From contig OY970061.1 of NCBI GenBank assembly GCA_963705255.1, forward strand, positions 64,001-128,000: DNA of 64,000 nucleotides, given 5' to 3'. The stretch comes from an uncultured Methanoregulaceae archaeon. Lineage in GTDB: Archaea > Halobacteriota > Methanomicrobia > Methanomicrobiales > Methanospirillaceae. Made by a program: the position numbers. This document shows, piece by piece, positions 6,001 through 9,000 of this stretch (position 1 is the first letter of the stretch; each line of letters starts with the position of its first letter).

Positions 6001-9000
6001 ATTGTTCAGTTACGAGAGCTCCCCGCCTCAGGGCCTCTCCGAAGAGTCAATCGTCGCGTCAGCGAGGATTGACTGGAGAAGAATCCTCATGGATTCTTCG
6101 ACTGCTTCATCCTGTACGGATGAAGCAGAGGAAGTTTGGAAAAACTTCCTCTTGCCGAGTCTCGGGAAAGATGAGGCACGGCGGGCAAGGAAGTTGATCC
6201 GCCGCGGGGGCGAGTCGAAAATTATCTATCCGAGAATTTTCTTCAGCCAGCCCCGACCATCTGGTCATGGCTGGCTCCCCGTTGAGGGCAGCGCCGAAGG
6301 CTGTGGAGAAGTGATAACTTCGAGTTCCGAAGAGGTTCATCGGAACCTAGAGGATGAAAAGAACTCGTCAGAGTTCTTCGAGTGCGGCGGCGTTCATCGC
6401 AATGGTAAAAGAGTGACAATCCGCCGTGAGATCTGAATAATACGATTTTCATAGAAAACGCTTCCCGGATTGAGATACGTTCAAATCCAATAAACAACGA
6501 TTCCCGTTCATGCAGTATTTCACCGATACGGATATGGGACTTGATATCGGGCTCGTCAACCTTGCCGTGGAATCGGCATTCGCAGATCACGGGAGGGGGC
6601 TGGTCCAGATGCCCCCCAAGCTCTACATTACGCTCCCCTCCGGTGATTTCCGTACCATGCCGGCATACCTGCCTTCGCTCGGGATCGCCGGGGTAAAGAT
6701 CGTCAACGTGCACCCGGACAACCCGTCCCGCGACCTCCCGACCGTGATGGCGCTGACGGTGATCCTGGACATCGCGACCGGCCAGCCCGTTGCTGTCATC
6801 AACGCGACACGCCTCACGGACATGCGGACCGGTGCAGCGGGAGCGGTGGCCGCCAAGTACCTCGCCCCGAAAAAAGAGATCGTCCTCGGTGTCATCGGCA
6901 CGGGCAGGCAGGCGGAGGCGCAGGTCGCGGCGATATCCCGGGAGCTGAAGATCCGGACGATCAAGGTCTGGAGCCGCAATCCCGACCATGTGCGGAAGTA
7001 CGCAGACCGCTTCATGGAATACCCGTGTCTTTCCGTCCCGATCGAGAAGGCGTGCGACTGCGATGTGCTGGTGACCACGACGCCATCGCGGGCCCCGATC
7101 GTCAGGAACGAGTGGATCCGTGAAGGAACCCATATCAACGCAATCGGGGCGGACGCCCCCGGGAAAGAGGAGCTCGACCCCGCCATACTCCGGCGGGCAC
7201 AGGTTTTTGTCGATGATCCTGCGCAGGCGGTACATTCCGGGGAGATCAATGTCCCGATAAGCCAGGGAATGTATCGGGAAGCCGACCTTGCCGGGACGCT
7301 CGGCGAAGTGGTGATCGGGAAGAAGAAACGGGCGAGCAAGGATACCATCACCGTCTTCGACTCGACCGGGCTTGCTATCCAGGACCTTGCCATCGCGAAG
7401 ATCGCCATGCAGCACGGGAGAACGTACCGAGCTGCCGTTCCCGTGAGAGCATTATCCGGAGATCGAGAGGGGGGTTGGGGGTCTACCCCCCCACTGTTTT
7501 ATTTTTGGGATGGGGGTGACCCCCCCACCCCTCACTCAGTGAGAGGGGTAGCTACCCCCCCTTTGCTGGACATGTGCAGGTTGTGCTTCGCATGGAGTTA
7601 TCGTCGGAGTAGAGATTTTTCGGCCCGTTATTGGTGGAGGGGGTACCCACCCCTCATGTGCCCGGAGGGGTACCCTACCCCCCTACCATTGGGTCCGGAA
7701 GAGGGGGGGGTCCCCTCCCCCACCCCTCCCTCAGCGGGAGGGTAGTAATCAACTAGTGAGTAGGAAATTTCCCATGAAATTAGTGATGGACGTCGCCGCC
7801 CCTTGGGGACGCCTCTGCTTCGGTTCAGTGACTTTTCATGGTGGGATACAGGTAAGTGAGTAGCGCAAAACCCGACGAGGCGTTTTGCGCGTAGGGCATC
7901 GCTGCGGTCAGATATTTTTTTTAAAGGTAACAATATGTAAGTAAGTTCAAGAAGAGTCACATCAGATCCGTATCTCAGGACAGAGGAATGGATACCCGTG
8001 ACACCAGCAAAAAGATCTGAATACGAAGTACAATGGGATACTGCCGGCCTCTTCAGGACTGGACAAATTATCACCGATTTGCAGTATGATTCGGTGAAAG
8101 AAGAGTATGATATCCGGATGAAGGACTGGGCGGACGATGGTCAGCAGACGGGTGAAGGGATCGTTCATATTTCCGGAGGGAAACGGGATGCAATCAAGAG
8201 TTTTCTGGAAGAGAGAAGGTACGTCATAACTCCTGAATACTATCACTACAGTGTTAGGGCACGGGGAAAAAAAGTTGATCCGACGGCCATTTCGCTGAAG
8301 ATCCAGGAACTGGGCTTAAAGTTTCTCTGGGTTCACGTAGTCGGCGGGACCGGTCCCGACCGGGCGCCGGGAAGATAAGGTCGGGGTGAAGCGGTTCTCA
8401 TCTCTTCGATATCGACGAGAGCCAGGCACGGGGTCCTTCCGCCCGGGTGCGGCTCTCGAAAATCGCCGGCCTGATGTAATTGATGGTCCACCCGTCCCGG
8501 AAGCTCTCCCGTATCTCCCTCTCTGTTATCCTCCTCGGACCGTATCCGCCGGGCTCCAGTTCGCTGAAGCAGAGCATGAAGTATTTCCCGGCCGGGGACA
8601 GGATGGCTGCAAGGTTATCCACGAAGACCGGGCGGTCTTCATCGGACAGGGTATGGAAGAGCCCTGAATCGGTGGCGGTATCGAACTTCCGGTTGAGCTT
8701 CGAGAGTTCCAGTGTGTTCAGGACAAGAAAATGTACCTGGAGTCCTCTTCCGGCAGCCTTCTCCTTTGCCTTCCGGATCGCCAGGGGGGAGGAGTCGATC
8801 CCCCACACTTCATGCCCTTCCCCTGAGAAGAAGAGGGCGTGCTCCCCGGTCCCGCATCCTATGTCCAGGACAGATCCCGTTATCTCTCCCCTCCGGACCA
8901 GCTCGACGAACTCCTTCTGGGGCCGGCCGATGTCCCAGGGAGGCGTGCCCCGGTATGCCGAGTCAAAGAAATCCATACTTGACCATAGCTTCTGATATGC

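Follow-up and report, generated by a model that had tools for sequence, protein, structure and literature searches.

A short hairpin bracketed by GA dinucleotides, of the general form GAGAAG-hairpin-CTTCGA, recurs in the 64,000-nt stretch of archaeal DNA analysed here (the window, C1:64001-128000, where C1 is OY970061.1, the single contig of a 2.60-Mb genome of 54.6% G+C from an uncultured Methanoregulaceae archaeon). We propose that these hairpins are probably the commonest module of non-coding, selfish or near-neutral repeat DNA of the Methanomicrobiales, an archaeal counterpart of the repetitive extragenic palindromic (REP) sequences of bacteria and of the bacterial interspersed mosaic elements (BIMEs) that contain them. 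The feature itself is real and strongly non-random. Within the window, the strict pattern GAGAAG-N3-30-CTTCGA matched 13 times against 0.42 ± 0.59 expected, and the looser pattern GAAG-N3-30-CTTCGA matched 31 times against 5.55 ± 2.56; none of 100 shuffles reached 13 strict matches and none of 100 dinucleotide shuffles reached 31 looser ones. Twelve of the 13 strict matches were compact hairpins within repeat loci. The sole strict match outside such loci, at 32725-32764 (GAGAAG-GA-GATCA, then 17 nt, then TGATCTTCGA), was a bulged hairpin with a long loop, overlapping open reading frames (ORFs).

All hairpins named in a preliminary description of this DNA were found at their positions, as were five further ones on the minus strand at 47977-48308; the copies at 6356-6381 and 25144-25170 start with GAAAAG and CAGAAG, respectively. 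The genome-wide search against shuffled controls that had been suggested there yielded 272 instances of the strict pattern compared to 3, 5 and 6 in three block-shuffled genomes. At least two interior pairs were present in 260 of the 272 instances, of which 152 were perfectly complementary and 32 contained one mismatch; these 184 are referred to below as the well-paired copies. An unbiased census of 5899 perfect hairpins genome-wide (stem of at least 6 bp, loop of 3-8 nt) also placed GAAG as the top foot (253 hairpins). The two top flank classes in this census, TC-GAAG..CTTC-TC (95) and GA-GAAG..CTTC-GA (74), are one motif seen from opposite strands and add up to 169 perfect copies.

The GA bracket proved to be a more general rule than the GAAG foot. 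Among 6170 intergenic perfect hairpins with a stem of at least 5 bp, those flanked by GA/GA (167) or by its complement TC/TC (201) formed the top flank class with 368 members, followed by a runner-up of 73, and the GA/GA class had no such prominence among intragenic hairpins. The helix extended past the GA dinucleotides in 269 of these 368 hairpins compared to 38% of the other hairpins, and at least three further outer pairs were formed in 29% compared to 7%. Because outer pairing continues past the GAs, the two dinucleotides must face one another as a 2x2 purine mismatch within a longer helix. Hairpins adjoining the foot hairpins obeyed the same rule, as in GTC-GA-CATGAC-aaa-GTCATG-GA-GAC and TC-GA-ATTCC-gca-GGAAT-GA-GA, and in the stems at 11183-11210 the GA/GA mismatch was internal. 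The wider grammar thus consists of an outer helix, the GA/GA mismatch, an inner helix, and a GNA or NTCA loop, with the GAAG foot as its commonest case.

With GA/GA and GNA or NTCA loops on one strand and TC/TC on the other, the motif is strand-asymmetric. Of 154 distinct hairpins, 148 were predicted to be more stable as the GA strand when DNA parameters were applied (mean difference 0.59 kcal/mol), and 101 under RNA parameters (mean difference 1.10 kcal/mol). DNA mini-hairpins are classically stabilised by tandem sheared G.A pairs and by C-GNA-G loops, which we take as a lead and not as a test. Kink-turn-type motifs also have two GA dinucleotides facing one another between two helices and forming tandem sheared G.A pairs; the present motif differs in lacking a three-nucleotide bulge, and its outer pairs, where present (269 of 368), directly abut the GA/GA step.

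The upper stems, which had been called unrelated, turned out otherwise. The 169 perfect copies comprised 51 distinct stems, most of them falling into few multi-copy subfamilies and mostly of the GAAGAAYNC, GAAGACC and GAAGATTTAC types. The largest counts were 16 for GAAGAACTC, 14 for GAAGAACGC, 13 each for GAAGACC and GAAGAACC, 11 each for GAAGAATCC and GAAGATTTAC, and 10 for GAAGAATTC. Loops were biased to ATCA (42 copies), GAA (25), GTCA (11) and GCA (11), and stem variation was confined to the top 2-4 bp plus the loop. Since every stem variant was multi-copy, much of the apparent compensation was inherited by copying, and much of the variable top is copy-family structure rather than independent variation. 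Around the foot hairpin, approximately 30 nt were conserved on the left, compared to the right of CTTCGA, where conservation was lost from about the fifth base. Hairpin modules were usually two-hairpin units with a CTTCGA end.

Genomic placement was determined against gene calls from a crude codon-usage model, by which ~76% of the genome is coding. Nearly all well-paired copies (177 of 184) were intergenic. Gaps between convergent genes held 62 of the 177 (35%) compared to 22% of the gap length, and gaps between divergent genes held 28 (16%) compared to 24%; in co-directional gaps, 43 copies lay along the gene direction and 44 opposite to it. No obvious bias to either replication strand was detected in 260-kb bins. 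The 184 copies made up 121 loci and were clustered with other hairpins: for 148 of them, three or more additional perfect hairpins lay no further than 100 nt away, which was the case for 33% of random intergenic positions. Both orientations were present in 21 of 40 multi-hairpin loci, although the conserved left neighbour and the tandem units described below point to direct two-hairpin units.

The foot hairpins are modules nested in mosaic elements of ~150-500 nt, a level of organization that the preliminary description had missed. The simplest element in the window, at 2886..3120 (+), is a minimal scaffold with no hairpin cassettes; it consists of a left-end module, a head with the stem P1 (CCCCGCC..GGCGGGG), a linker, the stem P2 (CCGCCGC..GCGGCGG) and the tail CTGAATAATATGATTTTCA. 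Element A (5950..6455, +) has the same scaffold, with left-end module at 5950-6009, head at 6010-6042 and tail at 6433-6451, and carries hairpin cassettes in both P1 (strands 6021-6027 and 6180-6185) and P2 (strands 6199-6205 and 6384-6390). Its foot hairpins, all on the plus strand, are GAGAAGAATCC-tcat-GGATTCTTCGA at 6076..6101 in the P1 cassette, GAGAAGT-gata-ACTTCGA at 6306..6323 in the P2 cassette, and the variant GAAAAGAACTC-gtca-GAGTTCTTCGA at 6356..6381, the final module ahead of the P2 3′ strand. The RNA fold of element A had z = -7.5 on both strands. A 144-aa ORF spanning it (6002-6436) was left uncalled by the codon-usage gene model and was treated as spurious.

Element B (24763..25233, +), located between convergent genes, contains the head, an A-type P1 cassette with a foot hairpin at 24829-24854, a P2 region, and 3′ modules including CAGAAGATTTCC-agc-GGAAATCTTCGA at 25144-25170. 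Element C (47933..48412, -) combines the scaffold and a D-type P1 cassette with five foot hairpins at 47977-48002, 48034-48053, 48180-48205, 48238-48259 and 48292-48308. Element D (51441..51562, -), which adjoins a tRNA-Pro gene, retains only the head and P1 domain with a three-hairpin cassette (foot hairpins at 51442-51463 and 51496-51512), and is 97% identical to 48237-48358 within element C. A second mosaic family is represented by element E (about 11040..11470), which has foot hairpins in both orientations, at 11097-11120 (-), 11183-11210 (+), 11216-11251 (-) and 11394-11421 (+), stems GGGAGGC/GCCGACC with the GA/GA mismatch inside the stem, and a T-rich 3′ flank. The genes flanking the elements of the window were ordinary housekeeping genes.

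The head CCCCGCCTCAGGGCCTCTCCGA, common to elements A, B, C and D, occurred in 44 genome copies at up to 3 mismatches, and ~135 genome loci shared pieces with the window elements. From 82 head-bearing copies in other Methanoregula genomes we derived a canonical scaffold unit consisting, in this order, of an optional left-end module, P1, an A/T-rich linker, P2 (CCGCCGC..GCGGCGG), CGTTCATC, and a tail in some copies. Its P1 hairpin reads CCCCGCC-TCAGG-GCCTC-tcc-GAGGC-AC-GGCGGGG; the P1 3′ strand was present in 73 of the 82 copies, at an offset of +23 in 70 of these. The tail GATTTTCATGG, where present, is complementary to the left-end sequence CCATGAAAATC. In the genome under study, the apical loops of both P1 and P2 carry the GA-bracketed hairpins as cassettes. 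The scaffold was nearly invariant among Methanoregula species: its consensus fold of 19 pairs had a covariation term of -0.04, compensatory changes were found at 4 of the 19 pairs, each in one sequence, and compensatory or wobble changes in P2 were few. A/T-rich sequence preceded the head amid otherwise unrelated flanks. Inverted ends of 11-15 nt (ATGAAAATCGT..ACGATTTTCAT) were found in this genome and in other species, and alongside them a further module of ~45 nt, usually at the left end only.

Other repeat families carry the same hairpins. The E-type family, with 17 matches, has a conserved 5′ part and a 3′ end made of a foot hairpin and a CCCC-T-run. A third conserved repeat segment (TTTTCATCAACCTTCTGAGGGACTATC, ATGGGGGATGCC and GCGGCGGGGGCGG in this order) had 30 copies, for example at C1:254170 and 2209411, and often lay directly 3′ of E-type elements. 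At C1 ~1668350-1668600, just downstream of a minimal scaffold copy, at least five 48-nt units are repeated in tandem, each with one more small hairpin in addition to the hairpin AAGAAGAACC-ataa-GGTTCTTCGC.

The turnover of these elements was followed in a close relative, G037, in which the ornithine cyclodeaminase (OCD) has 97% amino-acid identity and synteny blocks have 95-98% DNA identity to the genome under study. The strict pattern matched 261 times in G037 compared to 5 matches of the control, the same pattern read backwards. G037 holds the same elements at orthologous sites between flanks of 95-100% identity, and their contents differ. In its element A, 222 nt including the P1 3′ strand and the P2 5′ strand are missing, with the junction in a CGG repeat. 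In its element B, the head and the P1 3′ strand are identical, the cassette between them is of the C/D type of our genome, and 130 nt of 3′ modules (25103-25233) are absent. Reciprocally, the cassette at the element C site of G037 is of our A/B type, and its counterpart of the minimal element (2886..3120) contains a ~100-nt hairpin cassette in P2. Copies of the E type within our genome differ by two-hairpin blocks of 50 and 56 nt, whose boundaries lie inside the shared foot GAGAAGAAC. The P1 cassettes start after TCCGA and end in CTTCGA, and other indel junctions do not match this boundary pattern.

Presence and absence of whole elements were seen in the gap upstream of the OCD gene (6510-7745). 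The flanking genes are separated by 160 nt or less in 11 of 29 relatives, leaving no room for an element, whereas the same gap contains a minimal scaffold in G038 and an inverted scaffold in G016. In the genome under study and in G037, the gap (4830-6509) is ~1.6 kb long and holds element A together with an ORF at 5005-5466 (-) that has no Pfam match. The differences at orthologous sites and the presence or absence in the OCD gap indicated that elements come and go and that cassettes are exchanged among loci. Because the empty OCD-upstream sites are only ~74% identical, a target-site duplication could not be read there.

Some features noted in the same regions stand apart from the hairpin family. 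The OCD ORF of our genome is 411 aa long; relatives, with frames of ~313 aa, align to residues 1-~311, and the longer frame could have arisen by extension at the 3′ end, loss of a stop codon or fusion with a frame downstream. Synteny with G037 breaks at 7446-11478 and 17844-20595, with ~9014-11478 replaced, and a 2.7-kb stretch with the gene of a 742-aa YfhO-like membrane protein (17975-20203) corresponds in G037 to ~500 nt holding an E-type repeat. The segments 9962-10167 and 13000-13211, ~3 kb apart, are direct repeats of 92-93% identity unrelated to the hairpin family.

Across the order, the scaffold and the foot had different ranges. Within the genus, 16 of 18 other genomes contained the scaffold head; none of the 12 genomes searched from other genera of the order did, and exact 20-mer matches to the repeat were found almost only in records titled Methanoregula or Methanoregulaceae. 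The strict pattern exceeded the backwards control in G139 (162 compared to 14), G074 (68 to 6), G102 (121 to 4), G126 (120 to 6), G104 (116 to 5), G093 (106 to 6) and G201 (99 to 11), and showed no excess over it in families f4 and f6. Identical hairpins, for example GAGAAGACCGAAGGTCTTCGA, recurred in G104 and G201, which belong to other Methanomicrobiales families. Tandem arrays in G104 comprise 21.7 copies of a 47-nt unit and 7.9 copies of a 68-nt unit (99% identical), as well as 2.4 copies of a 78-nt unit (100% identical), each unit being made of two or three hairpins. In a pattern-free census of 400 kb of this genome (62% G+C), TC/TC (49) and GA/GA (37) ranked first, with the feet GAAG (38), GAAA (11) and CTGC (11) and the loops GAA (30) and GTA (23); in 400 kb of G102, GA/GA was the top class (19). 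Thus, the foot is kept across several families of the order and the surrounding elements are genus-specific, which fits a shared recognition or structural constraint. In phylum-wide counts outside the order, some families showed a 5-15-fold excess over the control, in which the listed matches were not hairpins; this excess may reflect codon usage, and spread beyond the order is not established. A viral contig collection contained no exact match to the commonest hairpin or the scaffold head. Exact scaffold heads also occurred in L088 (CAWFSF010000006.1, a 2.35-Mb contig titled Nitrospirota bacterium), with left-end and tail modules in addition, and in L019 (titled Dehalococcoidia bacterium); these bins may be mislabelled or mixed.

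The comparison with REP feet made in the preliminary description agreed with these results in distribution and anatomy. Like REP, BIME and REPIN-RAYT systems (RAYT, REP-associated tyrosine transposase), the repeats consist of short high-copy intergenic hairpins with a conserved foot tag and a variable top, arranged in mosaic clusters in both orientations; they are over-represented at gene 3′ ends, and a single-strand hairpin is the presumed active form. As in BIMEs, palindromic units form a mosaic with conserved non-palindromic motifs (head, linker, tail) plus variable cassettes. The comparison failed with respect to a Y1/RAYT partner, which was not found in the searches described below. The repeats also differ in their archaeal host, in their perfect tandem arrays, and in the nesting of modules, probably direct two-hairpin units instead of inverted doublets, in the hairpins of a larger scaffold. 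Their tag is a GA/GA bracket around GAAG/CTTC rather than the GTAG or CGTC tetranucleotide of the bacterial repeats defined in PMC3733652, whose main text does not mention methanogens. In their conserved end modules, variable number of internal modules, strong predicted folds and non-coding nature, they resemble BOX and Correia elements and miniature inverted-repeat transposable elements (MITEs), and the short inverted ends of the scaffold (CCATGAAAATC / GATTTTCATGG) may be a further similarity; they differ in that unrelated repeat families throughout an order have the same internal modules. BOX elements of pneumococci and Correia elements of Neisseria are modular non-coding repeats or MITEs with folded cores. 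Integron attC sites work as a folded single strand, in which the foot is conserved and the centre, an imperfect palindrome, varies. The analogy to attC drawn earlier was only formal, as the foot here is GAGAAG/CTTCGA, there are no RYYYAAC/GTTRRRY core sites and no ORF cassettes (the cassettes are of hairpins only), and no integrase context was seen (intI was not searched). Repeated G-rich, GC-hairpin sequences of function described as unknown were reported for Methanomicrobiaceae (PMC8044849), interspersed and intergenic, and forming hairpins as DNA oligonucleotides; these share with ours the order, the intergenic location and hairpin formation, and are distinguished by G-runs with a C3TC3 tract, the main account describing no GA-bracketed GAAG foot, mosaic or tandem arrays. 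No description of the motif or of an archaeal REP equivalent was found in the literature searched, and the supplementary tables of PMC8044849 might list overlapping repeats.

If the hairpins are indeed modules of such REP-like repeat DNA, their active form would be a single-strand hairpin, and DNA would be likelier than RNA because of the mixed orientations and GNA loops. The mosaics would arise as conserved feet and scaffold segments undergo gene conversion, unequal exchange or slippage with one another. Seeding of new sites would additionally need a trans-acting enzyme, other than Y1/RAYT, recognising the conserved foot. Recognition of the single-strand hairpin by an enzyme is suggested by the spread into new gaps combined with the retention of GA/GA-GAAG throughout the order, and the TCCGA and CTTCGA boundaries of the P1 cassettes plus the one-sided flank conservation are a possible clue to the junction. 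We therefore consider, as a tentative idea to which we would assign a low probability, a hairpin-recognising system in which a conserved non-Y1/HUH enzyme would bind or cut GA/GA-bracketed GAAG/CTTC hairpins in single strands and would insert, amplify and exchange two-hairpin cassettes at YTCGA junctions, also into the loops of other repeats. The earlier suggestion of a protein recognition or processing site is consistent with the order-wide foot, to the extent that this fits a shared recognition or structural constraint, and no protein was identified.

Several results weigh against the interpretation as REP-like mobile DNA. Y1/RAYT transposase (PF01797) had no match in the genome under study, nor in any of 29 further genomes of the family; 23 of 151 genomes of the order had a match, its presence did not track the hairpin-rich genomes, and it was found in 6 of the 8 genomes from g6, a genus that shows no hairpin enrichment. 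No mobilising or binding protein for the hairpins, that is, no handler, was found. Neither a target-site duplication nor a clean single-module insertion was resolved at the compared sites, and recombination among pre-existing copies could account for every change observed. Since the copies share descent, their counts overstate the number of independent events. In a wobble test for the functional strand, single stem mismatches comprised 14 G.T and 11 A.C (p = 0.69); this lack of G.T excess gave no direct sign of selection on the pairing of one strand. Finally, the near invariance of the scaffold, the A/T-rich stretch that precedes the head and the T-runs at the ends of some families would also fit transcribed RNA genes.

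Candidate partners were examined in addition to Y1. TnpB loci (2-3 copies) shared only chance matches of 11-16 nt with the elements, and one locus that was examined was unrelated. No autonomous element with scaffold ends was found by comparison with the TnpB loci, no wider transposase survey having been made. Three genes bracketed by foot hairpins, two small ORFs with no Pfam match and one weak PMT_2 match, offered no candidate enzyme.

The elements might alternatively be multi-copy structured non-coding RNAs or untranslated-region motifs, with the GA hairpins binding an RNA-binding protein or stabilising or terminating transcripts. The very strong folding of element A and the long-range closing stems P1 and P2 are what such RNAs would show, yet the folding was equal on both strands. 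The scaffold was kept almost to the base across Methanoregula, with few compensatory or wobble changes in P2, as would be expected of a conserved RNA, but the covariation term of its consensus fold was about zero and the stem mismatches showed no G.U excess. A/T-rich sequence upstream of the head in unrelated flanks, terminal hairpins followed by T-runs in several families, and the enrichment of copies between convergent genes are consistent with transcription units and their ends; in contrast, orientation was random relative to the flanking genes and mixed in 21 of 40 loci. Moreover, P1 and P2 each lose a strand through the 222-nt deletion in G037, where entire cassettes are exchanged as well. 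There was no Rfam match either: the whole window at gathering score gave two tRNAs only, and the region 5900-6500 at E ≤ 5 gave a chance microRNA match only. Taken together, these data make the interpretation as structured RNAs unlikely.

It is also conceivable that the foot has no recognition role and that the hairpins are side products of palindrome amplification, replication slippage and gene conversion, in which case the foot would be common to them only through descent and the intrinsic stability of GA-bracketed, GNA-looped hairpins. The perfect tandem arrays and the indel boundaries located in short repeats or inside the shared foot would be produced by such processes, homologous exchange between scaffold segments can explain the cassette swaps, and the failure to find a partner protein is in line with this explanation. 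However, slippage alone would hardly give 121 loci, or occupy the same gap in differing orientations across species, and near-identical hairpins persist in families whose surrounding repeats otherwise share nothing, so that we regard this explanation as quite improbable. An integron-like, site-specific single-strand cassette system, with hairpin cassettes inserted after a YTCGA core, would account for the constant foot with a variable centre, for the left flank kept over ~30 nt next to a right side unconserved from about the fifth base after CTTCGA, and for P1 cassettes lying between TCCGA and a terminal CTTCGA, but is very hard to credit given the lack of ORF cassettes, attC cores or a linked recombinase (intI being outside the search) and the other indel junctions that fall away from the foot.

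We thus favour the interpretation of the GA-bracketed hairpins as modules of REP-like repeat DNA. Bacterial REP-type repeats and the transposases dedicated to them have been studied extensively; here, a precise and unusual hairpin signature is kept across methanogen families, and the repeats built from it turn over fast between close relatives. New in this work are the GA/GA bracket as a general rule, conserved across families of the order and accompanied by tandem arrays, and the scaffold-plus-cassette anatomy with its reciprocal cassette swaps, with Y1 transposases not found. The repeats account for many long, hairpin-rich stretches between genes, which might otherwise pass for structured RNA genes, and they mark recombination hot spots and assembly breaks in Methanomicrobiales genomes and metagenome-assembled genomes. 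The hairpin signature provides a concrete bait for finding the handling protein. If the hairpin-recognising system were true, the repeats would constitute a novel class of miniature mobile DNA, functionally analogous in archaea to the REPIN-RAYT or attC-IntI systems and operating by a different chemistry.

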